Made by a program: the position numbers and the translations under genes. A stretch of 64,000 nucleotides of DNA from an uncultured Bacteroidales bacterium (GTDB lineage: Bacteria > Bacteroidota > Bacteroidia > Bacteroidales > CAIWKO01): contig CAYXXU010000009.1 in the NCBI GenBank assembly GCA_964469155.1, forward strand, positions 2,494 through 66,493, in the 5' to 3' direction. The stretch's first letter is position 1, and every line of letters starts with the position of its first letter. Under the pieces are notes generated by a model. That model did no database searches, had not been told where the DNA came from, and saw nothing but the letters and a program-made list of their open reading frames with translations. Positions 4,249 to 48,863 of this stretch are shown piece after piece.

Positions 4249-4287
4249 CGAAATCAAAGTTGAAATTTTTTGCTTGAAGTAAATACA

Positions 4288-5106
4288 ATGAAGGAAAGAA
4301 AAATAATTGATTCGTATAATAAAACACCATTTTTTTCTTACTTAAAACAAATTTGGAAATTCCGATATTTTTCTTTTTCTATCGGTTTTGGCGAACTAAA
4401 AAACAAACATGCCAAAACGTATACCGGTATTTTTATGAGTTTTATTCAAACTCTAATTACCTTATGTATTTACTGGTTTGTTTTTGGAATCATTATTAAA
4501 GTAAAAACCGGCAGCATACCCTATCCTTTGTTTGTACTCAGTGGTTTGATATTATGGCAGTATTTTTCCAATACCGTTAATACGATAACCTGGGCATTAA
4601 TCAGTTCTGAGAATTTAATTTCGAAACTTTATTTTCCCAGAATAAATATCATTTTTTCAAAAATGATACCAGGAACCATAGATTTTTTAATCGGTAGTTG
4701 TATATTTATTATCCTGTTTATTTTATATTCTCAACCATTGTCGCTTTCATTGCTTTTGGTTCCATTTGTTCTGATGATCCTAATAATTAACACCCTATCC
4801 ATAGGGCTTTGGACAAGCATTATTTCATTATATTACAATGATTTGAGCCATATACTGGTTCAATTGATAACTTTCTTTATTTTTATCACTCCCGTATTTT
4901 ATCCCAGTACCATTATTCCAGAACAATATAAGATACTTTTATATATAAACCCCATTGCAGGAACCATAGAATTGTTCAGATCACTTTTTTTTAATTACTC
5001 TTTTGAACAGGGATATATCACAGGTTTTTTCATTTCAGGCCTCTTATTTATTTCTGCCCTGTATTTTCATAAAAAAATTGATAAAAAAATTACTGACTTG
5101 CTTTAA
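4288..5106 (+). CDS. wzm: ABC-2 type polysaccharide export permease
   Basis: I prefer the ATG at 4288 to the track TTG at 4270. 272 aa with about six hydrophobic segments, matching the ABC-2 permease pattern of O-antigen/teichoic-acid exporters. The stop is 2 nt before the partner ATPase gene. Confidence 0.8.
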   Translation: MKERKIIDSYNKTPFFSYLKQIWKFRYFSFSIGFGELKNKHAKTYTGIFMSFIQTLITLCIYWFVFGIIIKVKTGSIPYPLFVLSGLILWQYFSNTVNTITWALISSENLISKLYFPRINIIFSKMIPGTIDFLIGSCIFIILFILYSQPLSLSLLLVPFVLMILIINTLSIGLWTSIISLYYNDLSHILVQLITFFIFITPVFYPSTIIPEQYKILLYINPIAGTIELFRSLFFNYSFEQGYITGFFISGLLFISALYFHKKIDKKITDLL

Positions 5107-5108
5107 TA

Positions 5109-6329
5109 ATGAAAGATATCGTAATACGTATTTCGGATTTAAATAAAGATTATTTTATAAACGACCTTAGACAAACTACAAGGCATCCAAATCCTTTTCA
5201 GAGCAAAAAAGAATCGCACGTATTTCATGCTTTAAAAGATATCAATCTGGAAATAGAAAAGGGAGAAGTTATAGGAATTATCGGGCCAAATGGAGCCGGT
5301 AAATCTACTTTATTAAAACTGATTAGCGAGGTTACTATCCCAACATCCGGGAATATTGAAATTCAAGGAAGTGTTGCTTCCATATTGGAAATAGGGATAG
5401 GATTTCAACCGGATCTGACCGGCTTTGAAAATATTTTTTTATCTGGAAGCTTGTATGGATTAACAAAGAATCAAATTAAAAAAAAGACATGTGAAATAAT
5501 TGACATGTTTGGCTTTCCTGATTTCATACATACAGCCGTTAAATATTACTCGTCTGGGATGTACATGCGATTAGCATTCTCAATAATAACTCATATTGAT
5601 GCAGATATTTATTTATTTGATGAAGTACTTAATGTTGGTGATTTAAATTTTAAAAATAAAGGGGTTTCAAAAATAAAAGAATTGAAGAATAAGGGGAAAA
5701 CAGTTCTAATTATAACTCATGCAGCACAATCACTAATTAAATTATTTGACAGGGTATTAATACTTGATAGCGGAGAAATTAAATTCTATGGCAATCCGGA
5801 CCTTGCAATAAAAATTGATTATGGATTGTTAACAAACAATAGTAAATTAGTTTCAAAGCAAATCAATCAGATAAATCAAAATGAACTCCTTCAAAAACAA
5901 AACCTCTTCAACATTGATTTTCAATCAAAATTATGGTTGAATTTTTTAAAAATATATAATTCTAAAACAAATGATTTTCTATGTACTGATTATGAAATCA
6001 TTATAGAAACCATTTTTCATGTTAATTGTAAAATAAATTTCAGAATGGGAGTTATCATTAAAGATTATAATGATAATGTTATTGCTAATTGTTTTTCGGA
6101 TGAGATTGACACAATTGAGAATAAGGGGGAGTACAATATTAAAGCAATATTCCCTCCCAATACTTTCAGGTCAAATTTTTTTATGATTGATATTGTAATT
6201 GTCTCCATGGATTCAATAATAATGTCATATACAAATGCTTTAAAATTTCGTTTGAGTTCTTCTGACAATCAAAGTTCGTTTGAAATTTTTGGATATATTA
6301 ACCCAACAGTCTGTTTTGAAATAAATTAA
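5109..6329 (+). CDS. wzt: polysaccharide ABC exporter ATP-binding protein with extra C-terminal domain
   Basis: Walker A GPNGAGKST, signature-like YSSGMYMRLAF, Walker B IYLFDEVL. About 160 aa extend beyond the nucleotide-binding domain. Confidence 0.85.
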   Translation: MKDIVIRISDLNKDYFINDLRQTTRHPNPFQSKKESHVFHALKDINLEIEKGEVIGIIGPNGAGKSTLLKLISEVTIPTSGNIEIQGSVASILEIGIGFQPDLTGFENIFLSGSLYGLTKNQIKKKTCEIIDMFGFPDFIHTAVKYYSSGMYMRLAFSIITHIDADIYLFDEVLNVGDLNFKNKGVSKIKELKNKGKTVLIITHAAQSLIKLFDRVLILDSGEIKFYGNPDLAIKIDYGLLTNNSKLVSKQINQINQNELLQKQNLFNIDFQSKLWLNFLKIYNSKTNDFLCTDYEIIIETIFHVNCKINFRMGVIIKDYNDNVIANCFSDEIDTIENKGEYNIKAIFPPNTFRSNFFMIDIVIVSMDSIIMSYTNALKFRLSSSDNQSSFEIFGYINPTVCFEIN

Positions 6330-6337
6330 ACTAATAA

Positions 6338-7861
6338 ATGAGTCCCAAGAAAAAAATAGTATTGTTTTATCCGATTGCAACGAATTTCAAACAAGGTCCA
6401 CCCTATTCTTTGCTTTTTCTGGAACGTATGGTTAGAGATGTTGAAGTTGAGGTTGCGATTTTTGATGAAAAACATGATAAGGGTCTTTTTGAATTTATTA
6501 AGATTAATCAGGAGGACATAATTCTTTTGGGAATTAGTGTTATGCTAAGTAACCAAATAATCAGTGCACGAATTGTTGCCGAATTTACCAAAACACACAC
6601 AAATATTCCTGTATTATATGGAGGATGGTTCCCGACAACATTTCCGGAAATTGTTTTATCTGAAGAATTTATTGATTTTATAATAGTAAAGCAGGGAGAA
6701 ATACCTTTCCGGGAATTAATATTAAAATTGCAAAGTGATAATAATGATTATGAAACTATTAAAGGATTGGGATTTAAAAAAGAGGGATCATTAATTTTAA
6801 ATGAAGAGAATAAATGGGCAAATATTTTTGAATTCCCAAGAGTTGATTTTAACAAAATAGATATCACTAAATATTTAGAAAATGGCAATCTCATACAGTA
6901 TATAGCTTCGCAAGGATGTAATTGCCAGTGTAATTTTTGTACTTTTTCCATTATTAAAGATATCCGTCATTTAACGAACAAACCAGAGAATATAATTGAA
7001 GACATTGTTTCCCTTAAAAATAAAATCCCAGGATTAACTCATATAAGCTTTATTGATGACAATTTCTTTTCAAACAGGCACTTCGTTATGCAACTATGCA
7101 ACTTATTCATTGAGCATAAAATTAATATTACCTGGAATGGCAGCGCTCACATAAAACAATTCTTAACATTTTACAATGAAGATGATATAAAATTCATTAA
7201 AAAAAGTGGTTGTATTATGATCTGGTGTGGAGCTGAATCAGCTGATGATTCTGTCCTTAAGAAAATTAATAAAAATTATAAGAAAAATGACACAATAAAC
7301 ATATTACGTATATTTAAAAGAAATCAAATTAGTGCTTCTTTTAATTTCATGGTTGCATTTCCGATAAATCCACAGATTGACTTTAAAAGAACTTTAAAGT
7401 TTATTATGAAAATATTACTATTAAACAGAAATTTAGAGATTGCTGTCAATTTTTACATGCCATTTACTAAAAACGAATATTATTATGAAGCCAGAAAATT
7501 GGGCTTCTCACTTCCTAATTCATATAAGGAATTTGAGAATGTTATAATGAATGGTTCTGAGATGAACTGGGTAACACCTGAAATGAAAAGACAAATAGGG
7601 TATCTGGGTGAATTTTATTTGCCAATATTGAAACTCAAATATCCACTAAATACGCAAGACGTATTAAAGCAAAAGTGGAACTTATTATTTGCAATATTTT
7701 ATCCTCTTATTTATTTACGTTTTGCCACACGCTTTTACAGATTAAATATTGACGCATATTTAGGACTGAAATATTTAAATTATTTCAGAAAAAAGAAAGG
7801 AATTGAAGTATCAAATCTTAATAATTTTATGACGGGCTTTGATAGGTATGTTGATGAATAA
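6338..7861 (+). CDS. B12-binding domain radical SAM protein (class B)
   Basis: 507 aa. N-terminal Rossmann-like cobalamin-binding-type region (KKIVLFYP...LLGISVM...VLYGGWFPT) followed by CNCQCNFC (CX3CX2C). Confidence 0.85.
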   Translation: MSPKKKIVLFYPIATNFKQGPPYSLLFLERMVRDVEVEVAIFDEKHDKGLFEFIKINQEDIILLGISVMLSNQIISARIVAEFTKTHTNIPVLYGGWFPTTFPEIVLSEEFIDFIIVKQGEIPFRELILKLQSDNNDYETIKGLGFKKEGSLILNEENKWANIFEFPRVDFNKIDITKYLENGNLIQYIASQGCNCQCNFCTFSIIKDIRHLTNKPENIIEDIVSLKNKIPGLTHISFIDDNFFSNRHFVMQLCNLFIEHKINITWNGSAHIKQFLTFYNEDDIKFIKKSGCIMIWCGAESADDSVLKKINKNYKKNDTINILRIFKRNQISASFNFMVAFPINPQIDFKRTLKFIMKILLLNRNLEIAVNFYMPFTKNEYYYEARKLGFSLPNSYKEFENVIMNGSEMNWVTPEMKRQIGYLGEFYLPILKLKYPLNTQDVLKQKWNLLFAIFYPLIYLRFATRFYRLNIDAYLGLKYLNYFRKKKGIEVSNLNNFMTGFDRYVDE

Positions 7862-7880
7862 AAACTAATTTAAGAATAAA

Positions 7881-9635
7881 ATGAAATCTTTTCTTGGAGT
7901 ATATTATAAACGGGAGTTAATAAGCAGGCAAGCCACTCAAATCGTAATTGATCATTTTTTAAATGGTAAAAATAAACAAAAGATTACAGAACATAAATAT
8001 GACCATTTATATTTAGCGCAACATAATTATAGTTCATCTCCAGAGTCCGAACTAGTAATTGGAAAATCTCTGTATGGATTTAACGGTATTATGTATCCTC
8101 CATTTCCACCTGCTTCTAATGGGATAGATTTAAGTGAGCAGATTTTACATTATTTTGAAGCTGGTTATAATAAAACCGGATACGACTCATTCAAACAATT
8201 AAAGGGAAAATACAATGCCTATATTTACAATACTGAAAGGCATGAACTAATTCTGGTTAATGACCCATTGGGAATGAATCCTTTATTTTATTATGAAGAT
8301 GAAGAAGTTTTTATTTTTTGTACCGAATATGAAGCTCTTTCAGAATTTGCACAAGCGAAACAAGAACTGGATATTGATGCCATTTTTGAGTATTTTATTT
8401 TTGGAGCACCACAAAATAACAATACATTTTTCCAGAAGATTAAATTATTGCCGCCCGGAAGTTTATTTACTTTTTGCGGCGAAAAAAAACTGGTTACACC
8501 CATTTACGAACGTATTAATATTCAACCAAATCAATCGGATATTGAAGAAATTGCAGATCGGTATTTTATAACATTTAAAGCAGAATTAAAATTATTACTG
8601 AAATGGTATCCCGATCTACCGGTTACGCTTACAGGCGGTACCGATACACGGATTATTTTAGGAGCAATGGATGAGGACCAAAGAAGAAAGCGAAAGTTCT
8701 TTACGTTTACAAGCAGAGTGGTTGAAAACTTTGAAAATCAGGATGTTTTAATTTCAAACATGCTTGCAAAAGAATTCGGACTACAACATAGTATCCTGGA
8801 AAAAGAGTTTTATGCCATAACTACTTTAGATGATGACTATTTTAATAATGTTCGTAACAATTCGGATTTTTTTGTTTCAGGGTTTCTTGGCTCAGAAACA
8901 CTGAGATTTTCTCCTTCTTATCCAAATAATATTTCTGAAATTTCAAGGAGTATTATATCTTCTACATATAATAAATATGATGATGCGCATGATTTTCTTT
9001 TTCCAATGAAAAAGGGTTTTACAAATTCAAAAAAAATATCCTTTGCAGAAAAGAGTTTGAGGGAATTCTTTAATAAAACCTATAGGAAAAATGTGAAAAT
9101 TACACCTAGCAATCTTTTTAAGTCTATAGAACATGCATCCGGACCTTATCCGGAAATTATTTATACTGATAATTATTTGATTCGTTGTTTCTTTTCCCGT
9201 CATTGCGGAGGTGCCAAGAGTAATGTAATTATGCCAGTTCACAATAGTCAGCATTTTGTTTCACCCTTTGCTATTAAAGAATTGCTTCAAATCATCTGGA
9301 GCATAAATCCCCAATATTTATACAGTAACAAAGATGGCATCTCGAATCGTATATTAAAGGATCACTTGCCTGAATTCTGTAAAGTAGAAAGCAATTCACA
9401 TCTGACAGATTATGATGGGACAATTTTAAAAAAATTCACAAGCGGACGACATACTGTCGATTATAACGCCATAAAATATCCTTCCTTCAACGATATCTGC
9501 AAAGACAATTTTGATTATCTATATAGCATATTTGATCTGAAAAAAGTAAAACGGCATTTTTTCGACAAAAATAATCCTTACATGTTTGTATGGGCGGACC
9601 TGTTCATATGGATAAATTATTTACATACCATATAA
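7881..9635 (+). CDS. asparagine synthetase B family protein lacking the N-terminal Cys nucleophile
   Basis: 584 aa. LILVNDPLGMNPLFYY parallels LLIARDRFGIKPLYY of the bona fide AsnB at 30351. LTGGTDTRIILGAM resembles the SGGxDS PP-loop. The protein begins MKS rather than MCG. Confidence 0.6.
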   Translation: MKSFLGVYYKRELISRQATQIVIDHFLNGKNKQKITEHKYDHLYLAQHNYSSSPESELVIGKSLYGFNGIMYPPFPPASNGIDLSEQILHYFEAGYNKTGYDSFKQLKGKYNAYIYNTERHELILVNDPLGMNPLFYYEDEEVFIFCTEYEALSEFAQAKQELDIDAIFEYFIFGAPQNNNTFFQKIKLLPPGSLFTFCGEKKLVTPIYERINIQPNQSDIEEIADRYFITFKAELKLLLKWYPDLPVTLTGGTDTRIILGAMDEDQRRKRKFFTFTSRVVENFENQDVLISNMLAKEFGLQHSILEKEFYAITTLDDDYFNNVRNNSDFFVSGFLGSETLRFSPSYPNNISEISRSIISSTYNKYDDAHDFLFPMKKGFTNSKKISFAEKSLREFFNKTYRKNVKITPSNLFKSIEHASGPYPEIIYTDNYLIRCFFSRHCGGAKSNVIMPVHNSQHFVSPFAIKELLQIIWSINPQYLYSNKDGISNRILKDHLPEFCKVESNSHLTDYDGTILKKFTSGRHTVDYNAIKYPSFNDICKDNFDYLYSIFDLKKVKRHFFDKNNPYMFVWADLFIWINYLHTI

Positions 9636-9672
9636 TCGAATCGGTTGCCAAATTGAATCTAATAATAACCAC

Positions 9673-11043
9673 ATGAAAAGAAAACTATTATTGATATTCC
9701 CGGTAGATAAATCCTGCATTAGATTTCAGGCACAAGCCCCCCCCTTGTCTTTGGGAATTATAGCCGCTTTAACACCCACAAACTGGGATATTGAAATTAT
9801 TGACGAAAATTGGGAAGATTTTGTTTATAAAGAGGCTGACCTGGTTGGAATTACTTCCTGGACATTTTATATTAACCGAGCATATAAAATTGCCGGCCAA
9901 TATAAAAAAGCAGGAATACCGGTTGTTATGGGAGGGATGCATGTTTCTGCAGTCCCCCATGAAGCAATAAATTATTGCAATTCTGTAGTTGTTGGAATTG
10001 CAGAGGAAATATGGCCCAAAGTGATCCATGATTTTGAAAATGGAAACTTAAAGCAATTTTATCATGGCCAACCGACACGGATTTTTATCAAACCAAGGCG
10101 CGATTTATTCGACAATAGATATATGTGGGGTGTGTTACAGACATCAAGAGGATGTCCAATGAGTTGCGAGTTTTGTTCTATAACACAATTTCATGGCAAT
10201 AGATATATTAAGAGACCCATTGAAGAAGTAATAGATGACATTAACGAAATTCAACAAAAATTCTTATTTATTGTTGACGAAAATATTTTGGGATTTACAA
10301 AAAGAGATGAAGAAAAGACTTTAGATTTATTTATAAAAATGTCACAAAATACTGATAAAAAATATTGGTATGGATTTTCCTCAATAAATATTGCCTACGA
10401 CAATGAGTTGCTAAAAAAAGCTAGTGACAGTGGCTGCGGTATGTTGTTTATTGGAATTGAGTCTGAAGATGAAGATGCTTTAAAATCAATGAACAAAAAA
10501 GTCAATCAAAAAATAAGTTTATCAGAATATGATAATCTTATAAAAAAGTTCCATAAAAATGGAATTGGTGTATTTGCGGGAATGATTTATTGCGCAGAAA
10601 CAGACCGGGTTTCCTCTATAAATAAAAGAGCTAAATTTATCCATAACAGTAAATTCGATGCAATTCATTCGAGTATTTTAACACCATTTCCAGGTACAAA
10701 AATGTTCGAGAGGATGAAAGATACTGAACGATTAATTAAAAATAATTACCCGGAAGACTGGAAATATTATAACTGGAAGTCAATTGTTGTAAAACCTGAT
10801 TTTGAAGTGGATTTTGAGAGTTATACAAAAGATGTGCAAAAAGGAATATTAAGTGTTTACAAGCCGTATAGGATTATTCTTAGGGCGATTAAAACATACA
10901 TATGGACTAAAAGCCTGACAATAGCAATACATGGTTTTTCATCAAATATTAATTATAGAGACTATTTTTTAAATAAAACTAATTCCAGATTGAAAAGAAT
11001 ACACAATTTCCTTAGTACTAAGATATTTAAAAATTTCAGATAA
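9673..11043 (+). CDS. B12-binding domain radical SAM protein (class B)
   Basis: 456 aa. N-terminal LLLIFP...DLVGITS...VVMGGMH region, then TSRGCPMSCEFCS (CX3CX2C). Close paralog of 15149..16510. Confidence 0.85.
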   Translation: MKRKLLLIFPVDKSCIRFQAQAPPLSLGIIAALTPTNWDIEIIDENWEDFVYKEADLVGITSWTFYINRAYKIAGQYKKAGIPVVMGGMHVSAVPHEAINYCNSVVVGIAEEIWPKVIHDFENGNLKQFYHGQPTRIFIKPRRDLFDNRYMWGVLQTSRGCPMSCEFCSITQFHGNRYIKRPIEEVIDDINEIQQKFLFIVDENILGFTKRDEEKTLDLFIKMSQNTDKKYWYGFSSINIAYDNELLKKASDSGCGMLFIGIESEDEDALKSMNKKVNQKISLSEYDNLIKKFHKNGIGVFAGMIYCAETDRVSSINKRAKFIHNSKFDAIHSSILTPFPGTKMFERMKDTERLIKNNYPEDWKYYNWKSIVVKPDFEVDFESYTKDVQKGILSVYKPYRIILRAIKTYIWTKSLTIAIHGFSSNINYRDYFLNKTNSRLKRIHNFLSTKIFKNFR

Positions 11044-11125
11044 CGATTAAATGGCTTCAGAAAAATAAAACACAAGCGGAAATAATGTGTTCATATTGCA
11101 TATCTATGTTTTAATCGGACCAGAG

Positions 11126-12487
11126 TTAATTGACAAAAACAGATTCAATTTCAGCTAGTAATGATTCTTCATCAGCATTGTTAAGAACTTCTAAAAGTTT
11201 TTCACCGGCAAAGGTTTGTATCAACAGTTTGAAATAATAATAGGCTTTTTGGTGATGATAATTCAGCATCAGGTTAAGTTTTTCATTTATGGCATTATTT
11301 TTCACTTCACTTTCAGGATCAAATAAAGAAATGAAATTTTGAATTTCAATCCAAAGTTTATTTTTCAATTTTTCGGCTTCATGCTTAAAGTTTAATGAAA
11401 GTGTCTCCCTGATTATAGCAGATCTTAAATTACTATTTAATACAGTCATCAATCCATTAAAGTGTTCCAGATTACCCGATGTGCTTTCAGAAATATCGTC
11501 AAAATGTTCTGCAGATAGAATTGAAATTATTTCTGAGAGGCTCTTCGAAGATAAAGTCCATAAACCATACCGGGCAGGAAAATAGTATTTATTAAACCAG
11601 ACAGCATTGTTTGTTTTGTTATAAATACGTATAAAATCAGGGATCTCCTGCCAATTCATTCTCATTGGGGTAAAACAAGAAGAGAACAGTGTTTTTTTTA
11701 TTGAACAATAATTGCGAAAAAACTCGATGTTTTCCAGAACTTTGTCGAAATCAGAATTTACCCTGATCGATTCAAAAAGTGATTTATTAACCGAATCAAT
11801 GGATACATTGATATCAAAATTTCCTTTCTGCAGTATATTCTTTATTCGATCATTCAATATAGTTCCGTTAGTTTGTACCGAAATTTTGCATTCAGGATTC
11901 GTTTTTGTAATCATTTCCCATAATGTATAGTTCAATGGTTCTATAAAAGGATCCCCTCCCAGAAAAAAAGTATATTTAAGATGAGGAATAAACAACTCCA
12001 TTTGTTTAAAGAATGAATCATCGTATACCATTGCCGGATCGTTAACATTACATCCACGCGTAAAACTATTGGACAGACACATGACACATTTTAAATTACA
12101 AACATCAGAAAAGCGAAAACCCATAACAGTGGGCATTGGCTGATCCTTAAATATACTCCAATAATCGTATCTTAATGCATTTATTGCATGATAATTTCCA
12201 AGATTCAGGTCTTTGCTGCATTGCAGGCATCCGATTTCATTTAGCTGATTTTTCTTTAAGTGTTTTCGGTAAGTTTTGATATTCTGAGAATTCCATATTT
12301 CAAGAATTGATTGTTTGGAAATATTCCCCAAGGGCCAAGTGTTATTGTTGTGACAAGGAAAAATATTGCCGTTAAAAGAAAAATAAAGAGAAACAAAAGG
12401 AGCATAACAAAAACTTTCTTTTCTGTTTATTTTTCTTATCCTGTAATATTTTTTAAGGTGCTTATTCTGAAAAAAAAGGTATGTCAT
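11126..12487 (-). CDS. radical SAM protein with N-terminal twitch/SPASM-like Cys motif (family copy 1 of 9)
   Basis: 453 aa. CYAPFVSLYFSFNGNIFPC, GCLQC, then SDVCNLKCVMC (CX3CX2C), GGDPFI, QTNGT, VSIDS, GLWTLS. Confidence 0.9.
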   Translation of the reverse strand: MTYLFFQNKHLKKYYRIRKINRKESFCYAPFVSLYFSFNGNIFPCHNNNTWPLGNISKQSILEIWNSQNIKTYRKHLKKNQLNEIGCLQCSKDLNLGNYHAINALRYDYWSIFKDQPMPTVMGFRFSDVCNLKCVMCLSNSFTRGCNVNDPAMVYDDSFFKQMELFIPHLKYTFFLGGDPFIEPLNYTLWEMITKTNPECKISVQTNGTILNDRIKNILQKGNFDINVSIDSVNKSLFESIRVNSDFDKVLENIEFFRNYCSIKKTLFSSCFTPMRMNWQEIPDFIRIYNKTNNAVWFNKYYFPARYGLWTLSSKSLSEIISILSAEHFDDISESTSGNLEHFNGLMTVLNSNLRSAIIRETLSLNFKHEAEKLKNKLWIEIQNFISLFDPESEVKNNAINEKLNLMLNYHHQKAYYYFKLLIQTFAGEKLLEVLNNADEESLLAEIESVFVN

Positions 12488-14747
12488 TTCGTATTTTAAT
12501 AATGTTAATTATAAGGTTCAGTAAGCAAAGAAAGAAATATCCGGAACAAAGAAAAACAGGGAAAATATAGTAACATGCATATCGTGAAACGCCCACCATA
12601 AGTATGGGGATAATTAGAATGTTTAAAATAATAAAAATAAATTGGATTGGAATAACAAGACGTACCCGTTTGAAGAGATAACTAAAAGTTACAATTAACG
12701 GGAATACTACAACGTTTATATCACCCCAAAATAATAAAATTAAAGAGAAAGAAAAACAGGTAATTGATCCGAACATATAGGACGGTTTTTTCTTGTTTGT
12801 TGAAAAAATAAAAAAACAAAATAATAAATTAACAAACAGAAAGTCAAATAATCTTATACTGTATATTTGATCAAAAATTTTTTTAAGTTTTTGAAATGAA
12901 AGTGTAAATATTTTACCGGGATTATGTGTATAAAAATTCAATATTCGTAATGAGGTTTTTTTATCATTCATCCGGTCATTATTATAAAAGCTTTTGCTGT
13001 CCTTAATCCAGGCATCAGAATACATACCATCCTTAATATACTCATTATGACAGTATAGTCCCTCTTTTTCTGGTAAAATCATGATCATAAAAAAAAGATC
13101 AGAGTGCTGCAAAATCATTTCAAAATAAGCCAAATATAAACTTTTGGGTCTATAAATGTTTAAGAGGAACATGCTGGGAGAACCAGTAGTTTCTACTTCC
13201 TGATAAATTGTGTCCTTAAATTGGATTATATCCCTATCTGTAATTCCTGAAATTTTTTGCTTAATTATGCCCCCATAAAATCCCTGATTAATATTCTGGT
13301 TGAGTTGTACTAAGTCAGGTTTGTTTTTAATTGTCTCAATCAACAAACCGGCACTTCTTTTTGTTTCTTTTAGAATATTAATACCCCATAAATTATAGGG
13401 TAACCAGCAAATAATAAAAACACTTCCAATAATAATTAGCTGCCTGAATTTAATAATATTTCTCTCGCGAAAAATAATTATTAAAAGATCCAAAAACATG
13501 AATAGTATGAAAAACATGAGGCTGGATTTTATTAAAAAACTGAAACCACATAATAATCCCAAAACGACACCATTTGACATATTAAACGTTTTACGATATC
13601 TCATATATGCCCATGTAATAAAAAAATTAATAACTATTGTAACCAAATCCGGACTAAAACTTGAGGTCAGAGGAATGATAAGAAATAAAAAAAAAGGAGC
13701 AGTAATTACCCCTGCCCAAAACCCCCTGATATTCCATAGTTCATAGCCTAATAAAGGAAAACAAAAAACAACCATTAAGAGAAGAAATAATTGCAGAAAT
13801 TTTATGAGGAGTGGGCATACTCCGGTAATTTTATATATTAACCCCAGCAATAAGGGATAGCCAGGAAACCTGTGCAAACAAACCAGGCCTTTGTAGAAGT
13901 GAACAGCATTAAAATTTAATTTATTTATTATACTATCTCCAGCATTGTCAACATAAATATTATAATCCACATCATTATTAATCATTCCGTTAACCATAAA
14001 CAGATTGTTTTCAGCAAAATTTACGGCGATAGTTTGATAATCGGCTTGATCGGGATTATCATTAATATGAACATAATTATCAAAATTAAGAAAATTATCA
14101 AATTTTTTTGAAAAATGAATTGTCAAAAGACTAATAATAAAGAGTATTGAAAACAATAAAAGATTTATTAAAATCCTTTTTTTAAAAACAATAAGCTGTA
14201 TGTTAATAATATTGATTCTCTGAATTACTTTGTAAATAAAATGTTTGATTTTTGCACGAAACAATATTAGGTTTAAAGCTATTGACAAAATTAAAAAGGC
14301 AGTAAAACCGCTTTTTAACCATTTAATATTGTAAACAAAAGATGCTAAATAGCCAAGTTTTTCAATAAAGGGTTGATGAATTGAATTTTTAAAAGAGAAG
14401 TCCTGATATATTACACCTGGAGGAACCGAAACTTTTACTAAATGGTTATCATTAAGAAATACATTAATTTTTATACTATCGGCTGAGGCCGTTGTTAATC
14501 GAATTATTGCTTTTTTATAGAATCTATTGTATTTATAAAACAGAGTGTTTTTATTTGATTCTAAAGTAAGTAGGTTACCAAGAGGACTGATTCCAAGAAA
14601 ATTAATTTGACCAGAATACTTGGCATTGTATGAAATTAAAAGTTTTCCATAATAATTGGCGTTTTTCAGATAAATGACAGACGAAATTACAGTGCAAATT
14701 ATTAAAAAACAAATGAATACCAAAATATATTTCAATGACTTTTTCAT
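12462..14747 (-). CDS. large polytopic membrane protein, GT-C (PMT_2/ArnT-like) glycosyltransferase candidate
   Basis: I prefer the ATG at 14747 to the TTG at 14762. 761 aa with more than 12 hydrophobic segments. The loop DQADYQTIAVNFAENN followed by HRFPGYPLLLGLIY resembles the DExxYxxxA...hPPl signature of ArnT/PMT family enzymes. Its 3' end overlaps the downstream rSAM gene by 26 nt. Confidence 0.5.
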   Translation of the reverse strand: MKKSLKYILVFICFLIICTVISSVIYLKNANYYGKLLISYNAKYSGQINFLGISPLGNLLTLESNKNTLFYKYNRFYKKAIIRLTTASADSIKINVFLNDNHLVKVSVPPGVIYQDFSFKNSIHQPFIEKLGYLASFVYNIKWLKSGFTAFLILSIALNLILFRAKIKHFIYKVIQRINIINIQLIVFKKRILINLLLFSILFIISLLTIHFSKKFDNFLNFDNYVHINDNPDQADYQTIAVNFAENNLFMVNGMINNDVDYNIYVDNAGDSIINKLNFNAVHFYKGLVCLHRFPGYPLLLGLIYKITGVCPLLIKFLQLFLLLMVVFCFPLLGYELWNIRGFWAGVITAPFFLFLIIPLTSSFSPDLVTIVINFFITWAYMRYRKTFNMSNGVVLGLLCGFSFLIKSSLMFFILFMFLDLLIIIFRERNIIKFRQLIIIGSVFIICWLPYNLWGINILKETKRSAGLLIETIKNKPDLVQLNQNINQGFYGGIIKQKISGITDRDIIQFKDTIYQEVETTGSPSMFLLNIYRPKSLYLAYFEMILQHSDLFFMIMILPEKEGLYCHNEYIKDGMYSDAWIKDSKSFYNNDRMNDKKTSLRILNFYTHNPGKIFTLSFQKLKKIFDQIYSIRLFDFLFVNLLFCFFIFSTNKKKPSYMFGSITCFSFSLILLFWGDINVVVFPLIVTFSYLFKRVRLVIPIQFIFIILNILIIPILMVGVSRYACYYIFPVFLCSGYFFLCLLNLIINIIKIRNDIPFFSE

Positions 14748-14856
14748 AAAATAACCATTCAAAAATAGTATTAAGAGTCGATTTTAAATAAACTGGCTAA
14801 AATTTTATTTCCGTTTTTTTATTTCTACTATCATTTTATCATTGTCAACTTAATGA

Positions 14857-14895
14857 ATGATTTTTATTGGGGGATACTTATTGATTAAAAATCAT
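14857..14895. promoter_or_regulatory. 10-bp perfect inverted repeat ATGATTTTTA-N19-TAAAAATCAT
   Basis: 14857-14866 and 14886-14895 are reverse complements. They lie in the 400-bp divergent region between the GT-C gene and the B12-rSAM gene. The context is AT-rich, so a chance match is plausible. Confidence 0.2.
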
Positions 14896-15148
14896 ATTCG
14901 CAAAATTTTAGTAAAGTGTGGAAATCCTATCTATTTTTTATAAAACTAGATCTGTGTTAATTGCAACAAATACTATAAAAAAACTGTTATAAATACAAGA
15001 TTAAAATCATGAATTAAATATTAGTGTGAGTAAAATTATGCCCTGAAAATACTTGTGCAAATTTAGGCAAATTATTCCCTGGTGAACAAAATAAGTATTG
15101 CTCGGATAATTTAAATTGTTAATTTTACATAACAGATAGCATTAAATC

Positions 15149-16510
15149 ATGAAAAGATTAGTTTTAATTTTTGCAGTCGACCCAAATATCAAAAAATTAG
15201 AGTCTGTTCTTCCGCCATTGTCTCTTGGAATAATTGCAGCTCTTACGCCAAAAAATTGGGAAATTGTTATTGGAGATGAAAATATTGAAAAGTTTTCTTA
15301 TATGCCGGCTGATTTGGTAGGTATTTCATCGTGGACTTTAAATATTAACAGGGCATATCAGATAGCTGACGAGTATAAAGAAAACAAGACAAAGGTTATA
15401 ATGGGGGGGCAGCATGTTACTGCATTACCTGAAGAGGCTTTGATTCATGCCGATTCTGTCGTTAAAGGCATAGCTGAAGATATTTGGCCCAATGTCATTA
15501 CAGATTTTGAAAATGGAGAATTGAAATCTATTTATTATGGCAAGCCTACAAATACTTTTGTAAAGCCCCGCTACGATTTGTTTCATGAGTCTTACAAACT
15601 TGGAGCAATTCAAACGAGCAGAGGTTGTCCCATGGGTTGTAATTATTGTTCTGTTTCAAATATTACCGGGCACACATATTTTCGAAAGCCTTTGAAAATG
15701 ATAATAGAAGAATTAAGGGAGATGCCACAAAAATACATCTTCTTTACTGACGATAATTTGATCGGGATTACTAATAAACAAAGAAATGAAGCATTAGAGC
15801 TTTTTGAAACAATGATAAATAACAATATTAAAAAGCATTGGATAGGTCAAACAAGCCTTTTAATTGCCGAAGATGATTTACTTATAAAGGCGGCAAAACG
15901 AAGTGGTTGTTATATGGTTTTCATTGGAATTGAAACAGAAAACAAAGCGGGACTCACTATGCTGAATAAGGAAATAAATTTACATGTTGCTCCAAATAAT
16001 TATTCTAATTATATTAAAAAAATTCAAAAAGCAGGTATTGGAGTATTTGCAGGTATAATTTACGGATTAACTACTGATAAAATTGAAAGTTTTCAGGCAC
16101 GATCACAATTTGTAAGAAAACTTAATTTGGCTTGCTTTGGTTCTTTTATTCTCACTCCTTTGCCAGGTACTAAATTTTTCTCAACATTGACCGACAATAA
16201 AAAAATATTATGTAAAGATTTTCCTACAGATTGGAAGTACTTCGATTATAATCATTTATTAGTGGATCTTGAACTAAATGTTTCGCCAGAAATTTTATAC
16301 TCGGAAATAAATAAACAGATACTGAAAACATATACAATGTATCAAATAGCATATAGGGCATTTCGAACCCTATATCAGACAAAAAGCATTTTAGCTACCT
16401 TACATGGGTTATGGACTAATTTAAAATATAAAATGTTTTTATCCAAAAGCTCATCATTAATTAAATTCATGAATTTTGTAAGCCAGATAAAAACTTTTTT
16501 TCTTAAATAA
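15149..16510 (+). CDS. B12-binding domain radical SAM protein (class B)
   Basis: 453 aa. TSRGCPMGCNYCS. Collinear with 9673..11043; more than half of the residues are identical by eye (e.g. PPLSLGIIAALTP, NINRAYQIA, DFENGELK). Confidence 0.85.
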   Translation: MKRLVLIFAVDPNIKKLESVLPPLSLGIIAALTPKNWEIVIGDENIEKFSYMPADLVGISSWTLNINRAYQIADEYKENKTKVIMGGQHVTALPEEALIHADSVVKGIAEDIWPNVITDFENGELKSIYYGKPTNTFVKPRYDLFHESYKLGAIQTSRGCPMGCNYCSVSNITGHTYFRKPLKMIIEELREMPQKYIFFTDDNLIGITNKQRNEALELFETMINNNIKKHWIGQTSLLIAEDDLLIKAAKRSGCYMVFIGIETENKAGLTMLNKEINLHVAPNNYSNYIKKIQKAGIGVFAGIIYGLTTDKIESFQARSQFVRKLNLACFGSFILTPLPGTKFFSTLTDNKKILCKDFPTDWKYFDYNHLLVDLELNVSPEILYSEINKQILKTYTMYQIAYRAFRTLYQTKSILATLHGLWTNLKYKMFLSKSSSLIKFMNFVSQIKTFFLK

Positions 16511-16993
16511 AATCATTTACCTTATTGAAATCATTGATGTTAATAATTCTTAAGAAGCATGTTTAATTTAATGATGTGTGAATACTAGATACGTTTATTC
16601 TTAAGTCCCTAAAAATAATATCAAAAATCACTAATAGAGAATAGTATTGATTTGAAAACATACAATACCGATGATATAAGAATGACAATTATTAATATTG
16701 TTTTAAAAGCAAGTGAATTTTAAACAAATTATAACATTATTCTTTATTTATATGAATGGCAGTCATGAAAATATATAAAGAGAATAAAAACCACATATCA
16801 ACAGCTCTACATTATTATACAGGTTGTTTGATAAAAACTTAATAAAATAATTTAGAATAAAAAGATATTATTATAAGATTTCTTTTATCAGGATATGAAA
16901 AAGACAAATTAAGAGAATATGAATAATATTGTATGAGCATAGTGCGCAATTTGTAATAATTCATAATTTAATAAAAAATAGTTAACAGCATAA

Positions 16994-18436
16994 ATGAAAA
17001 CGTATATAATAAAAGATACATTTTGCTTATTTGTCGCTCCTAAATTCAATGCTGGGAAAGCTAATTTATTGATGATGATTCGTGAGAAGGATCCACCACT
17101 GAACCTTGCTATGCTAGCCAGCTGGATAAGGACTAAAGGAAGCAAGACTGCAATTCTTGATTGTGATATTGATGCCCATAATTACTCCATTTTTAAAAGA
17201 AAAATAAATTATTTTCGGAAAAAGTATCCATTAGAAAAATTTTATATTGGGTTTTATGTTTGTACTCCGACGGCTTATGAGTGTTATCATTTAGCAAAAA
17301 TTGTGAAGGATTGCATTCCGGAAAGCATCCTTATTGCCGGAGGGCCACATGCTACTTTTTTACCGGAGGAAGTGTTAAATAGCTCCCCTATGGATATTGT
17401 TGTAATAGGAGAAGGCGAAATTACACTTGAGGAAATATTGTTACAGCGCGATCTAAATGATGTAAATGGCATTGCATTTCTCAATCCAAAAAACAAAAAG
17501 GAAATCATAAAAACAAAGCCCAGAGAAAGATTTACTAATCTGGATATTTTGCCAATTCCTGCTTATGATTTATTAAATATTAAAAAATACCGATCGCCAA
17601 TTGGTGCTTTCAAACGACTTCCTTCCTTTTTAGTTAGCTTCTCTAGAGGGTGTCCTAATTATTGTTTTTTTTGTACAAAAACATTAGGTACGAGTTTTTT
17701 TCAAAAATCTGCCGTAAAAATGTTTGAAGAAATAAAATACCTTAAAGTAAATTTTGGAATTATCGACTTTGTTATTGTTGACGACACATTTACTGCAGAT
17801 CGTGAGAATGTACTGCGATTTTGTAATATTTTACTGCAAACAAATATGAATATTACCTGGCATTGTTATACACGGGCAAATAATATCGATACCGAATTAT
17901 TAGTAGAAATGAAAAGAGCCGGATGCCACCAGCTAATGTTTGGTATTGAATCTTTTGATGACGATGTCCTAGAAAAAGTAAATAAAGGAATTAACTCCAG
18001 CATTGCAATCGAAGCAATTCAGAAAACACAGGCAACAGGTATTTCATGCAGACTTTCAATGATGGTGGGTAATATTGGTGATACCCCAAAAACATTAAAC
18101 CACAGCATCGATGAAATAATAAGATTAAAACCTGATTTTATTAATATTTTAATAGCTACCCCTGGCCCTGGCACACCTTTTTTTTCCTGGGCAGACAAAA
18201 ACGGCAGGATAATTACTAAAGATTGGGATAAATATACCGGAGGAACAGCAGTTGTAAAACTTGACGACATTTCAATTAATGAAATAAATAAATATTATAA
18301 AAGATTCTGGATAAAATTTTATTTTCATCCTAGGATAATTCTGAGGCATTTGCTCAAGATCACTAATAGATATCAATTAAAGAATTTCCTTGTTGCAATT
18401 ACTAGAATTTTAAAATTTTTGATTTATAGACACTAA
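16994..18436 (+). CDS. B12-binding domain radical SAM protein (class B)
   Basis: 480 aa. N-terminal PPLNLAMLASW...LIAGGPHATF region, then FSRGCPNYCFFCT (CX3CX2C). Confidence 0.85.
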   Translation: MKTYIIKDTFCLFVAPKFNAGKANLLMMIREKDPPLNLAMLASWIRTKGSKTAILDCDIDAHNYSIFKRKINYFRKKYPLEKFYIGFYVCTPTAYECYHLAKIVKDCIPESILIAGGPHATFLPEEVLNSSPMDIVVIGEGEITLEEILLQRDLNDVNGIAFLNPKNKKEIIKTKPRERFTNLDILPIPAYDLLNIKKYRSPIGAFKRLPSFLVSFSRGCPNYCFFCTKTLGTSFFQKSAVKMFEEIKYLKVNFGIIDFVIVDDTFTADRENVLRFCNILLQTNMNITWHCYTRANNIDTELLVEMKRAGCHQLMFGIESFDDDVLEKVNKGINSSIAIEAIQKTQATGISCRLSMMVGNIGDTPKTLNHSIDEIIRLKPDFINILIATPGPGTPFFSWADKNGRIITKDWDKYTGGTAVVKLDDISINEINKYYKRFWIKFYFHPRIILRHLLKITNRYQLKNFLVAITRILKFLIYRH

Positions 18437-18440
18437 TAAA

Positions 18441-19340
18441 TTATTTTTTTAAAAGGAAAACCAATGGGCTTAAATTTGCTTCTGCAAAATGTCCACAATT
18501 TTGACAATCTAAATTTTTACAACTCAAGCGTTCTTCTAATTGGGAATTAAAGTGTTTTACAGCTTGTTTCCAATAGCATGGTTTGTTTTTATGATCTTCT
18601 TTTTGAAACCATTGTATTGCACTATTGCTCATAAGAAAGTGAGCAGGGTACTTTCTTTTCAAACGATACATCTCAGAAATGATTTTATTTCGCAGATCAG
18701 AATGAACAAAGAAGGGGTCCTTTTCAGGATTTACCGGAGAAGGAGTATAGATATCACAGGATACGCCAAGCATATTATTTTGAATAGCCAATTCAACCAC
18801 TGATTCCATCTGATTCCAGTTTTGTGGTGTAACAGTCATACTAATTACCACCCTCCTGTCATTTTTATAGTTTAATAGCACTTTTTCATATGTGCCGGAA
18901 CCTCTGATATTATCATGCGTCTCCCTATTACCATCAATGGATACAAATATTTTTTGATTATAAAATTCACCTATTTTAATGGTGCCATTTGAACAGATAT
19001 CTATAAATTCGAAATGTTTAGAGGCTTCTGATATAATATCCTGTCTCAAGGCCGGTTCACCTCCTATTAACAAAACCCTTCTTATGCCCTGAGCTTTTAG
19101 TTTCAAAAATTCAGATTTCCAACGTTCAATCGGAAGATCCGAAAAGTTTAACTGATTTTTAAAATTAAAATGATAACAATGTTCACAATTTAAATTACAT
19201 TTATCTGTTATGTCGAATTCGGCAATATAAATTGTGCCAAAAATCAATCTTTTTAGTTCATAAAAAAATATCTTTCCGAATCGAATTAGCTTTTGCGACA
19301 TACTCCCCGGCCATTGTCTTGAAAAATAAAAAAATTCCAT
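18441..19340 (-). CDS. radical SAM protein with C-terminal Cys cluster
   Basis: 299 aa. ITDKCNLNCEHCY (CX3CX2C), IGGEPAL. C-terminal cysteines PCYWKQ...SCKNLDCQNCGHF. Starts 17 nt downstream of the UbiA gene stop on the same strand. Confidence 0.85.
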   Translation of the reverse strand: MEFFYFSRQWPGSMSQKLIRFGKIFFYELKRLIFGTIYIAEFDITDKCNLNCEHCYHFNFKNQLNFSDLPIERWKSEFLKLKAQGIRRVLLIGGEPALRQDIISEASKHFEFIDICSNGTIKIGEFYNQKIFVSIDGNRETHDNIRGSGTYEKVLLNYKNDRRVVISMTVTPQNWNQMESVVELAIQNNMLGVSCDIYTPSPVNPEKDPFFVHSDLRNKIISEMYRLKRKYPAHFLMSNSAIQWFQKEDHKNKPCYWKQAVKHFNSQLEERLSCKNLDCQNCGHFAEANLSPLVFLLKK

Positions 19341-19357: not shown

Positions 19358-20209
19358 TTATATCCTGCTTAATAGAATGATTAATCCACCAATTCCATAA
19401 AAAATTCTGTATATTAACCTGTATCGTGTCCTCTCTTTAATATTATTAATTTTTTTCCTGAAAAATAGCCATACCATAAGCTGAAGAACAAAGGCAAGGA
19501 TAAAACACAAAAATTCTATAAATGAAACAATTTTTATATAGAAAAGAAAAGACCAATATATAGCAGCTATCGTAAAAATAAGAATAACGATGTCCTGAGA
19601 TAATCTGAACCCCATAAAAATTGCTCCGGTTTTCAGACCTGATTCTTTATCAGGCTCATAATCTATTATTTCATGAAATAAATGGCCGGCTGCAAAAATA
19701 AGTGAAAAATAGATAGAAATTAAAACTGCTTTTTGATCAATTGAAACAAATAGCGAATATATCATTAAAAAATGCAAGATCTCAGCAGTAAAATGCAATA
19801 GAGTTCCAATAAAGGGCTTATGTTTAAATCCCCATTCAGGAAAAGAATAAAGCATCCAAATAAAATATATAAGTAGGGCGAAAATGCCGGTATTCAAGTT
19901 GAGAAAAAAACCAAAAAAAGCTGCAAAAATGATAAATATAATAGATGAAAACAGATATTGTTTTTTATTTAAGGCCATATGATCAAGTCTATCATTCAAT
20001 ACATCATAGCCAAATCCACCAAATGCGTTATAGGCGTATATAGACAATATGAGCATAATGGATAAAAAGAATGCTAATATAAATAATATTATATTGTCTG
20101 TATTAATGGCATGTGTCGCAAATACGCCACCGATGAGAAAAAAGCCACTCATTGCTATGGATTCACCAACCCGAAGCGATTTGATATATTGATGCAGTAA
20201 CCGTTTCAA
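19358..20209 (-). CDS. UbiA family prenyltransferase
   Basis: 283 aa with about 8 TM segments. Asp-rich motifs VLNDRLD and IIDYEPDKESGLKTGAIFMG match the two UbiA-superfamily motifs. Confidence 0.8.
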   Translation of the reverse strand: MKRLLHQYIKSLRVGESIAMSGFFLIGGVFATHAINTDNIILFILAFFLSIMLILSIYAYNAFGGFGYDVLNDRLDHMALNKKQYLFSSIIFIIFAAFFGFFLNLNTGIFALLIYFIWMLYSFPEWGFKHKPFIGTLLHFTAEILHFLMIYSLFVSIDQKAVLISIYFSLIFAAGHLFHEIIDYEPDKESGLKTGAIFMGFRLSQDIVILIFTIAAIYWSFLFYIKIVSFIEFLCFILAFVLQLMVWLFFRKKINNIKERTRYRLIYRIFYGIGGLIILLSRI

Positions 20210-20459: not shown

Positions 20460-20485
20460 CAAAGAATAACTAATAAATACAGTTT

Positions 20486-22810: not shown

Positions 22811-22995
22811 ATTATTATACTCCAAATGGAATAATGTATTAATTAATCTCCCAAAATGGAAGGATAAATACAAAGGTATAAAAAACAATTGTCACTCTAC
22901 TTTTTCCCCTTGTAACCGATTTCTTATCAGAAATAAAATTGGACGAAAACACATCGTCACCTTCAATAAAAAACATTTGTTCTCGGCAGAATCAT

Positions 22996-26755: not shown

Positions 26756-26760
26756 AAAGA

Positions 26761-28496: not shown

Positions 28497-28500
28497 AACG

Positions 28501-36329: not shown

Positions 36330-36330
36330 T

Positions 36331-40640: not shown

Positions 40641-40644
40641 GTCC

Positions 40645-41847: not shown

Positions 41848-41848
41848 A

Positions 41849-48555: not shown

Positions 48556-48561
48556 AATATT

Positions 48562-48711: not shown

Positions 48712-48863
48712 TTGTGTCTGTATGAAAGCCTCAGCTACTTCGTTGTTCTTGTCTTTCAAATCAGTCATTTACAATAGTAAACTCCTGATCTTCAATCCTA
48801 CGAAGCGCCTCATATTTGAGCCTTTCATTTCAGCCACAGAATAATGTTCTCAACAAAAAACCC

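Follow-up and report, generated by a model that had tools for sequence, protein, structure and literature searches.

Genes of class B radical SAM architecture in a radical SAM-rich surface-glycan locus of an uncultured Bacteroidales bacterium

Radical S-adenosylmethionine (SAM) proteins of class B number more than 80,000 sequences. They form over 100 groups, most of which, the largest included, are unexplored (2026 review, PMC12931638). C-methyltransferases are found in every class B group of which a member has been characterised (PMC12931638). AprD4 and ArsL have a related domain, belong to the same similarity network as class B and bind no cobalamin; AprD4 acts on an aminoglycoside sugar (PMC12931638). 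Here, we describe four genes of class B architecture, B1 to B4, in a 64,000-nucleotide stretch of contig CAYXXU010000009.1 (GenBank assembly GCA_964469155.1) from an uncultured Bacteroidales bacterium. This whole stretch is referred to as the window. B1 to B4 add new members to a known superfamily. What is new is their setting, a conserved locus for a surface glycan in which two radical SAM families are expanded and which has its own acyl carrier protein (ACP) system and a rare, probable GT-C glycosyltransferase. No description of such a locus was found in the literature. Likewise, our literature search found no report of radical SAM enzymes of class B or with a twitch domain in loci for O-antigen, surface polysaccharide or lipopolysaccharide.

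The class I class B enzymes TokK, OxsB, TsrM, QCMT/MgmA and CysS combine the same N-terminal Rossmann-type domain with a CX3CX2C TIM barrel and, like B1 to B4, lack a DxHxxG motif; all five are among the fold or profile matches of the window proteins. However, structural alignments give only 11-18% identity, and no curated family is held in common. The settings also differ. The known class I enzymes serve antibiotic and cofactor pathways and the maturation of methyl-coenzyme M reductase, whereas the window genes lie in a surface-glycan locus. To our knowledge, the class B members characterised so far nearly all belong to pathways for antibiotics, cofactors or pigments or to methanogenesis. The chemistry expected of B1 to B4 is that of GenK, GenD1, Fom3 and CysS, which is the methylation of unactivated carbons on sugars or carrier-bound chains. 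This likeness is one of expected chemistry.

We tentatively read B1 to B4 as tailoring enzymes of a Wzm/Wzt-dependent surface-glycan locus of the O-antigen or capsule type, which would C-methylate an acyl or amino-sugar side unit. This reading is given slightly less than an even chance, and the methylation step itself a roughly even chance at most. The original prediction was a C-alkylated glycan or lipid. Its two premises, class B architecture and a glycan locus, have held, and the prediction is reasonable but unproven. The synteny described below tips the choice of target towards a side unit, either acyl or amino-sugar.

Domain architecture and family placement of B1 to B4

B1 (6338-7861, plus strand, 507 aa), B2 (9673-11043, plus, 456 aa), B3 (15149-16510, plus, 453 aa) and B4 (16994-18436, plus, 480 aa) are intact enzymes. 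An N-terminal Rossmann domain of the B12-binding type is followed in each by a CX3CX2C TIM-barrel core, and these are the two features of class B architecture. This combination had been predicted for four open reading frames (ORFs) at exactly these coordinates, and profile searches bore it out. All four proteins exceed the Pfam gathering scores for B12-binding (PF02310; 34.9, 37.5, 43.4 and 43.5 bits for B1 to B4, cut-off 32.1) and for Radical_SAM (PF04055; 61.2, 47.2, 44.8 and 65.2 bits, cut-off 29.5). The single CX3CX2C motif of each protein is at C194/198/201 in B1, C161/165/168 in B2, C160/164/167 in B3 and C220/224/227 in B4. The GGxH segment in the Rossmann part is retained by B2, B3 and B4.

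By sequence comparison, the four proteins are assigned to three uncharacterised clades. B1 stands in a clade of its own, B2 and B3 belong to a very large conserved clade, and B4 falls in the BchE/HpnJ-like region of the superfamily. B2 and B3 are 46.0% identical over 446 aa (E 6e-152), and the remaining pairs are 23-26% identical. The two had been described as close paralogues with more than half of their residues identical; the paralogy held, and the identity is lower. They are not each other's nearest relatives, since B2 has a 60% orthologue on another metagenomic contig (L005), and B3 comes only about fifth.

The AlphaFold2 model of B2, built with 30 homologues, has a predicted local distance difference test score (pLDDT) of 90.3 and a predicted TM-score of 0.89. 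Its N-terminal region (residues 4-132) alternates between beta strands and alpha helices and is followed by more alternating strands and helices. In a Foldseek search of the PDB, the first match was AprD4 (E 7e-20, TM 0.72). It was followed by QCMT/MgmA (9ccb; E 9e-19), TsrM (7e-17), CysS (3e-16), MiaB (1.4e-14), TokK (5.6e-14) and OxsB (7.1e-14). When the family profiles (alignments A1, A3 and A4) were compared with the PDB, AprD4 was again at the top, with 61.5, 112.7 and 120.7 bits, and QCMT was second. AprD4 is thus the closest solved structure by profile for the B1, B2+B3 and B4 clades alike. Searches of the PDB with single sequences gave weak matches only, and the CysS and TokK matches over all searches ranged from 22 to 64 bits.

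AprD4 is the apramycin 1,2-diol dehydratase, and its substrate is an amino sugar. Its first place favours an alternative in which some or all of B1 to B4 carry out non-methylating, possibly cobalamin-free radical chemistry on sugar units. The candidates are 1,2-diol dehydration of the AprD4 type, ring contraction of the HpnJ/OxsB type and cyclisation of the BchE type, and the Rossmann domain would be structural or use cobalamin in another way. The ring-forming or ring-contracting enzymes HpnJ and BchE point in the same direction, because they are the top curated models for B4, as BchE is for B1, and neither is listed as a methyltransferase in PMC12931638. This alternative is a serious rival, although we hold it less likely than methylation of a side unit. 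Against it, all four proteins pass the PF02310 cut-off. The matches of the B1 and B4 family profiles to AprD4 are confined to the radical SAM core, whereas those to OxsB and TokK, and for B4 also to CysS, start at profile positions 29-80, ahead of the core and within or near the N-terminal regions of these chains. Furthermore, the AprD4 family model NF033070 (cut-off 500 bits) scores 90.7 for B4, 40.2 for B1 and 32.7 for B2 and does not match B3, and no AprD3-like partner reductase was identified.

The HpnJ and BchE scores are similarly distant from the equivalog cut-offs of NCBIfam, which are 577.6 bits for HpnJ (TIGR03471) and 481.35 bits for BchE (TIGR02026). B4 scores 176.8 and 176.6 bits with these models, B1 79.3 and 105.9 bits, and B2 and B3 58.7-67.5 bits. 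The original prediction had named best matches to BchE-type enzymes as an outcome that would speak against it. BchE and HpnJ do come first for two genes, but their scores of 106-177 bits against 481-578 reach only 18-37% of the cut-offs and are taken, by sequence, as superfamily resemblance only, so that the prediction is not refuted on this ground. In addition, the window holds no hopanoid or bacteriochlorophyll genes, and its host is a non-phototrophic member of the Bacteroidota.

Other curated models gave the same picture. The model for B12 radical SAM proteins of ladderane-type lipids (TIGR04072, cut-off 360) scores 98.2 bits for B4, 86.3 for B1, 73.0 for B3 and 55.5 for B2. The four proteins score 24.8-103.7 bits with HpnR (cut-off 650), 62-95 with PhpK (600), 48-75 with QCMT (TIGR04014, 360) and at most 61 with KedN5 (700), and B4 scores 134 bits with ApyD (750). 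The best curated matches of B2 are PhpK (71 bits) and HpnR (69 bits). Those of B3 are the ladderane-lipid model (73 bits) and the MJ_1487 family (70 bits, cut-off 251). As judged from these scores, B1 to B4 belong to none of the specific curated families examined. Because no curated cut-off was reached, the specificity of B1 to B4 is not transferable from a known enzyme.

Several of these results weigh against methylation of a glycan side unit, as does part of the wider distribution described below. AprD4 leads both the fold and the profile matches, and no curated NCBIfam cut-off was even approached by any of the four proteins. In the profile search, the N-terminal domain of B2/B3 had no sequence-level match to any solved cobalamin domain. 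B1 reads YGGWFPT where the family consensus is WGGWHPT, with Phe in place of His in the GGxH segment. No Rfam family, and therefore no cobalamin riboswitch, was matched anywhere in the window. The window also has no receptor of BtuB grade; its two TonB-dependent receptors score 116 bits against a BtuB cut-off of 600, and both score slightly higher on haem/haemoglobin-receptor models than on BtuB. Cobalamin use by B1 to B4 is predicted from the B12-binding domain match, beyond which the window gives no sign of it.

Recurrence with an acyl carrier module and the proposed chemistry

Related clusters were found by contig look-up of homologues plus one metagenome scan. Nine distinct instances are known, namely the window, L005, L087 (the same as L091), L090, L092, L094, L096, L098/99 and L101. 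Each cluster fragment has one to six class B genes, and their variable number and type is the behaviour predicted for tailoring genes. The class B genes are accompanied by most of the following: radical SAM genes with an N-terminal twitch domain (N-twitch), a module of ketosynthase (KS), ACP, FabA-like dehydratase and short-chain dehydrogenase/reductase (SDR), DegT/PglD genes and Wzm/Wzt. Three of the related clusters carry a full-length copy of the rare ArnT-like membrane protein.

The clusters keep much of the gene order. In L087, which is from Bacteroidales GCA_029558535.1, an epimerase gene is followed by Wzm (51% identity to the window protein), Wzt (45%), an AsnB-like gene (38%), an N-twitch gene (42%), a UbiA gene (35%), a B4 paralogue (37%), the B4 orthologue (60%), a small radical SAM gene (58%) and the GT-C gene (36%). 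Beyond these lie a glycosyltransferase gene of family GT2, DegT, an acyltransferase gene, a B1-like gene and two N-twitch genes. Around the small radical SAM gene there are six class B genes in L090 and five in L092. The array is directly followed by the GT-C gene, with a sulfotransferase gene between them in L092, and then by DegT, PglD, radical SAM/SPASM, FabA, KS, ACP, phosphopantetheinyl transferase (PPTase), GT2 and AsnB. The linkage of B4, the small radical SAM gene and the GT-C gene is conserved in L087 and looser in L090 and L092.

In the window, the dedicated acyl-chain module (25943-29393, plus) encodes an SDR, a FabA-like dehydratase, a FabF-like KS, an ACP (within ORF 28420-28755, plus) and a tentative PPTase (28755-29393, plus). 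The L092 gene at the same position as the PPTase candidate passes the ACPS cut-off, and the two have a KE(A/S)xxK segment in common. The module adjoins class B genes repeatedly. In L005, the 60% B2 orthologue sits between the acyltransferase gene and a block of radical SAM/SPASM, SDR, FabA, KS, ACP and GT2. A B1-type gene directly follows the SDR gene of the module in L098/99 and L101, and the GT2 gene in L094. In all four of these clusters, a class B gene abuts the KS/ACP/SDR genes or is one gene away. B1 itself has a 40% orthologue in L090 and relatives at 34-36% in L094, L096, L098/99 and L101. Within this cluster family, no neighbour of class B genes is as regular as the KS-ACP-FabA-SDR module, and the same applies to about 25 further Bacteroidota genomes. 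An acyl side-chain is therefore at least as likely a target as a sugar carbon.

B2 and B3 flank a minus-strand pair of genes (11126-12487 and 12462-14762), as had been predicted. The pair was described as an N-twitch radical SAM protein and a GT-C membrane protein. The N-twitch architecture is present in the former (137 bits, below the model cut-off of 170), and the GT-C label of the latter is weakly supported. This bracket occurs only in the window, and the flanks of the GT-C gene differ in L087, L090 and L092. A functional meaning of the bracket was therefore rejected. What persists instead is that class B genes lie near the GT-C gene (in the window, L087, L090 and L092, and near a shorter homologue in L008) and near the ACP module.

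The low GC content of the locus is also shared. It is 28-31% over 4-20 kb of the window versus 36-42% in the flanks, and 27-29% in L005, L087, L094, L096, L098 and L101. The pattern is consistent with a mobile surface-antigen island of low GC content that several lineages share. L090 and L092, at 45-50% GC, are from different lineages.

The proposed chemistry would proceed as follows. Each enzyme would cleave SAM at its [4Fe-4S] cluster, and the resulting 5'-deoxyadenosyl radical would take a hydrogen from an unactivated sp3 carbon. The substrate radical would then receive a methyl group from methylcobalamin, possibly repeatedly or at several positions. The likeliest targets would be a short acyl chain on the KS-ACP-FabA-SDR system of the locus, or the DegT/PglD-derived N-acyl amino sugar that bears it. 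Such a target would apply most to B1, B2 and B3, because B1- and B2/B3-type genes recurrently abut the KS/ACP/SDR genes. A loose precedent for an ACP-bound target is provided by CysS and TokK, whose crystal structures were solved with pantetheinylated substrates bound, according to the PDB titles; the sequence matches to both are weak, as noted above. Methyl transfer, the identity of the substrate and the order of these steps are predictions.

B4 would belong to a separate sub-module with three of its neighbours, the small radical SAM protein, the UbiA protein and the ArnT-like GT-C protein. The small radical SAM gene (18441-19340, minus; 299 aa, PF04055 42 bits) is convergent with B4 and lacks a SPASM domain. 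Its homologues (58% in L087, 43% in L090 and 37% in L092) are always inside or adjoining a class B array. The UbiA-superfamily prenyltransferase gene (19358-20209, minus; PF01040 52.9 bits) has weak NCBIfam matches only and the 35% orthologue in L087 mentioned above. Its sole PDB match is 4tq3, a chain deposited as 'Prenyltransferase', at E 0.0025, and its assignment as a decaprenyl-phosphate phosphoribosyltransferase is unsupported. The sub-module would probably prepare a lipid-linked donor, which the GT-C protein would add to the polymer exported by Wzm/Wzt.

The prenyltransferase and the KS-ACP module could also supply a lipid as the substrate itself. In that case, B1 to B4 would act not on the exported glycan but on a lipid of the membrane or on a carrier lipid, of either isoprenoid or fatty-acyl type. 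Lipids are modified by HpnP and HpnR, by enzymes of ladderane clusters and by ring synthases. The UbiA gene adjoins the small radical SAM gene and B4, an arrangement kept in L087. The ladderane-lipid model is the best curated match of B3, and HpnR is the second best of B2. Moreover, triplets of B2-type genes lie beside FabH-ACP-SDR genes in about 25 Bacteroidota genomes. We nevertheless judge a lipid substrate improbable. The ladderane and HpnR scores in question are 67-73 bits against cut-offs of 360-650, and glycerolipid and hopanoid genes are both absent from the window. DegT, PglD, GT2, AsnB and Wzm/Wzt genes always accompany the KS-ACP module, and this fits an acylated sugar better.

Maturation of a ribosomally synthesised and post-translationally modified peptide (RiPP) by the radical SAM arrays is a further proposal, with the AsnB-like proteins as cyclases and the ATP-binding cassette (ABC) transporter as exporter. 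It draws on weak matches to the RiPP C-methyltransferase model TIGR03975 (61-94 bits), to a lasso cyclase model and to many models of SPASM peptide maturases. All of these scores are far below cut-off (282 bits for TIGR03975). No conserved small ORF or conserved intergenic sequence was found when the window was compared with six related-cluster loci, of which one, L008, shares only a B2-type/GT-C pair. In addition, the locus is full of glycosyltransferases and sugar-nucleotide enzymes, and its AsnB_2 protein passes the asparagine-synthase equivalog model. A RiPP product is hardly credible.

C-alkylation of a glycan or of its acyl decoration, if true, would extend the known chemistry of bacterial surface polymers. 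The gene set in which the class B genes recur is defined and portable, and it also includes another expanded radical SAM family, an ACP system and a rare GT-C protein. A small ACP-bound substrate and co-located partner genes would offer a tractable route to the function of three orphan class B clades. Corrinoid availability would be tied to surface-antigen structure in anaerobic Bacteroidota.

Wider distribution of the three clades

The B2/B3 clade is by far not confined to this cluster type. More than 6,400 of 8,000 candidates scored match it at E below 1e-5. The B2 family has a mean column identity of 64%, and its members are 39-48% identical across bacterial and archaeal phyla. The hosts include Bacteroidales, Chloroflexota, Spirochaetota, Syntrophomonadaceae, WOR-3, Caldisericales, Bathyarchaeia, Methanophagales and Promethearchaeota, and the best 80 genome matches are all metagenome-assembled genomes (MAGs). 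In 47 of 79 loci the B2 gene is single, and tandem copies (two to four) are present in the other 32. Genes of the window rarely recur across these loci, save for the SDR family in 24 of the 79. The B4 clade has about ten relatives at 46-61% identity and is not restricted to glycan loci. In L088 (10001-11425) and L089 (10001-11428), B4-like genes (55-58%) have a conserved setting that is not of the glycan type, with a gene for a 225-aa protein, read from the opposite strand, on one side and a gene for a tetratricopeptide repeat (TPR) protein of about 650 aa on the other. Since most B2 loci are single-copy and B4-like genes occur outside glycan loci, membership of a clade is not by itself a sign of a glycan substrate.

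At least B2, B3 and B4 might accordingly be general-purpose enzymes of anaerobes, in cofactor or housekeeping roles, that landed in the locus by rearrangement and have no part in the glycan. The high conservation of the B2 family over phyla including archaea, its mostly single copies among unrelated neighbours (with a MarR gene in 12 loci) and the B4-like genes of L088 and L089 are in line with this idea. Yet the closest relative of B2 (60%) and the closest B4 relative with known context (60%) are both in the same cluster type as the window. B1 to B4 have the depressed GC content of the locus, and the number of class B genes varies from one to six between instances, as expected of tailoring genes. 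We assign only a slight probability to a housekeeping role.

Two settings of B2-family genes outside the window are conserved in themselves. A MarR-family regulator gene directly precedes a single-copy B2-family gene in 12 loci (Pfam-confirmed in one representative). The MarR-linked loci L019-L022, L029, L030, L036, L050, L065, L077 and L079 are mostly from Chloroflexota, with one Caldisericales and one Spirochaetales MAG. In 22-25 other loci of the 79, all from Bacteroidota MAGs, a FabH-ACP-SDR-GT2 set lies beside two or three tandem B2-type genes. These loci represent a second conserved Bacteroidota cluster, which has a Wzx flippase, one or two sulfotransferases, a GNAT protein, a GT2, an SDR, a FabH-type KS, an ACP and two or three B2-family genes (L007, L016, L018, L024, L027, L038, L040, L051, L060 and L081 among others). 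An AMP-ligase and a TonB receptor are often near, and a few loci have a stand-alone ORF of 143 aa with a B12-binding domain.

The B1 clade has about 30 full-length representatives at E 1e-59 or better. Beyond these it grades into the general class B continuum (28,971 representatives at E up to 1e-3). Outside the cluster type, B1-family loci mostly have no further gene in common with the window. Five giant proteins (P0279, P0286, P0290, P0292 and P0297; 1,497-2,331 aa) contain three or four separate B1-matching stretches and look like class B radical SAM modules fused in tandem.

The membrane protein, the radical SAM expansion and other genes of the locus

ArnT/PMT_2 systems are the nearest parallel to the large membrane protein of the locus (12462-14762, minus). 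As in these systems, a protein with many hydrophobic, probably membrane-spanning, segments in a hydropathy scan (766 aa) is encoded near a DegT aminotransferase, an N-acyltransferase and a GT2. Only 10 homologues were found in 5.8e9 proteins. Two of these remote homologues (P0255 and P0257) carry PF13231 (PMT_2), and one of the 10 is named ArnT-like. The AlphaFold2 model has a pLDDT of 74, and the top 14 fold matches are all GT-C proteins (ArnT, STT3, ALG3, PglB and Emb). However, the fold scores are weak (E 1.5e-3 to 8.5e-2, TM 0.23-0.33), and the protein itself has no Pfam match. The segment NPDQADYQTIAVNF, with the invariant residues D233 and Q238, appears to resemble the ArnT motif 'PDETRYAEISREM'. 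From the fold matches, the 766-aa protein is a probable, not proven, GT-C glycosyltransferase of a rare ArnT/PMT-like family. Homologues lie beside class B arrays in L087/L091, L090 and L092, and a shorter one is present in L008. The GT2 gene of the window (29341-30348, plus) is not specifically ArnC-like. Its best matches are of the TuaG, PglI and EpsE types, and the analogy with the Arn pathway was dropped for this gene.

Radical SAM genes number 16 in the window, and all but one belong to the locus proper. Besides the four class B genes, there are nine N-terminal-twitch/SPASM genes, the 299-aa gene, a 370-aa radical SAM/SPASM gene and one gene at 53.5 kb. The first N-twitch gene, NTwi_1 (11126-12487, minus), is the partner of the GT-C gene in the minus-strand pair. 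It has the SPASM domain (residues 27-90) N-terminal to the Radical_SAM domain (126-261), a score of 137.3 bits with NF033640 (below the cut-off of 170) and a 42% orthologue in L087. NTwi_2 (21362-22888, minus) reaches this cut-off with 173 bits. The other seven form one tandem array (32135-43372, plus) with a 400-aa gene interspersed. Five N-twitch genes were scanned with NF033640 and gave 137-173 bits, with 144-166 bits for three array members. All nine paralogues have an intact CX3CX2C motif (CNLxC[IVM][MI]C), and their pairwise identity is 27-38%. Nearly all of the related clusters have N-twitch genes together with class B genes, and the N-twitch expansion may be the more unusual of the two.

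A bolder proposal is that arrays of class B (one to six) and N-twitch (two to nine) proteins would heavily modify a carrier-bound acyl-amino-sugar unit, in an undescribed conserved radical SAM-rich pathway of uncultured anaerobic Bacteroidota. The ArnT-like protein, as a new GT-C family, would install the unit on the polymer exported by Wzm/Wzt. This remains speculative, and we hold it to be unlikely in its full form. One possibility within it, by analogy, is iterative C-methylation that would build branched alkyl groups on a surface polysaccharide in the style of polytheonamide or cystobactamid.

The 400-aa ORF of the array (40645-41847) overlaps the listed start of the ninth N-twitch ORF (41630-43372) by 218 bp. 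The true start of the latter is probably downstream of the listed one, and the N_Twi model begins at residue 128. The 400-aa protein has no Pfam or NCBIfam match. Homologues (39-40%) are found in L005, with two copies, and in L098. In L090 and L092, a gene of about this length comes after AsnB. The 370-aa radical SAM/SPASM gene (24778-25890, minus), identified by profile matches, is a conserved partner of the acyl module, with identities of 64% in L005, 54% in L090, 53% in L091 and L101 and 48% in L092. The sixteenth radical SAM gene (radical SAM/SPASM; 53472-54467, minus) is outside the glycan locus and adjoins a gene for an AI-2E family transporter. Its best match is a maturase model for tungsten-cofactor oxidoreductases (152 bits, cut-off 380).

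The polysaccharide locus spans about 3 to 50 kb of the window. The Wzm-type ABC-2 permease gene (4270-5106, plus; PF01061, ABC2_membrane, 46.6 bits; 51% identical to its L087 counterpart) is adjacent to the Wzt/TagH-type ATPase gene (5109-6329, plus; PF00005, ABC_tran; 406 aa with a C-terminal extension of about 140 aa). This pair points to ABC-transporter-dependent polysaccharide export of the Wzm/Wzt type. The ATPase scores 158-183 bits with the TagH/Wzt models of NCBIfam against equivalog cut-offs of 320-538, so that the assignment is at family level only. An exporter of this type had been predicted alongside the class B genes, and it is confirmed in the company of GT4, GT2, GT9, DegT, PglD, AsnB and carbamoyltransferase genes. 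The locus glycosyltransferases comprise GT4, GT2 and GT9 members and one with a DXD motif, and NUDIX and GDSL proteins are also encoded. The Bacteroidota assignment rests on type IX secretion system sorting domains (Por_Secre_tail), on CarboxypepD_reg domains at the N-termini of TonB-dependent receptors and on the taxa from which the nearest homologues come. A DUF4143 ATPase is a further host marker in the window. Proteins of the source contig are also present in the SRR10083293-310 assemblies.

The locus has two AsnB-type amidotransferases. The divergent AsnB-like gene (7881-9635, plus) matches GATase_7 only and is beside Wzt in L087 as well (38% identity). The other gene, AsnB_2 (30351-32138, plus), is a bona fide AsnB-type gene with 442 bits in the asn_synth_AEB model (cut-off 267). 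The DegT-type sugar aminotransferase gene (23076-24185, plus; PF01041 283 bits) scores 196 bits with PseC and 156 bits with ArnB. It is followed by an intact N-acyltransferase gene of the NeuD/PglB/VioB type (24182-24781, plus; TIGR03570 140.5 bits). The paralogue of the latter, a NeuD/PglD-type hexapeptide acyltransferase gene (20483-21076, plus), is broken by an in-frame stop after codon 26 and aligns end to end with an intact L087 orthologue (49% identity, 196 aa). Either this gene is a pseudogene, or the stop reflects an assembly error or is read through. The distal end of the locus (46687-49217) encodes a carbamoyltransferase of the NodU/CmcH type (316 + 249 bits) and, 260 bp downstream of it, a small SxtJ-like protein, which suggests O-carbamoylation of the glycan.

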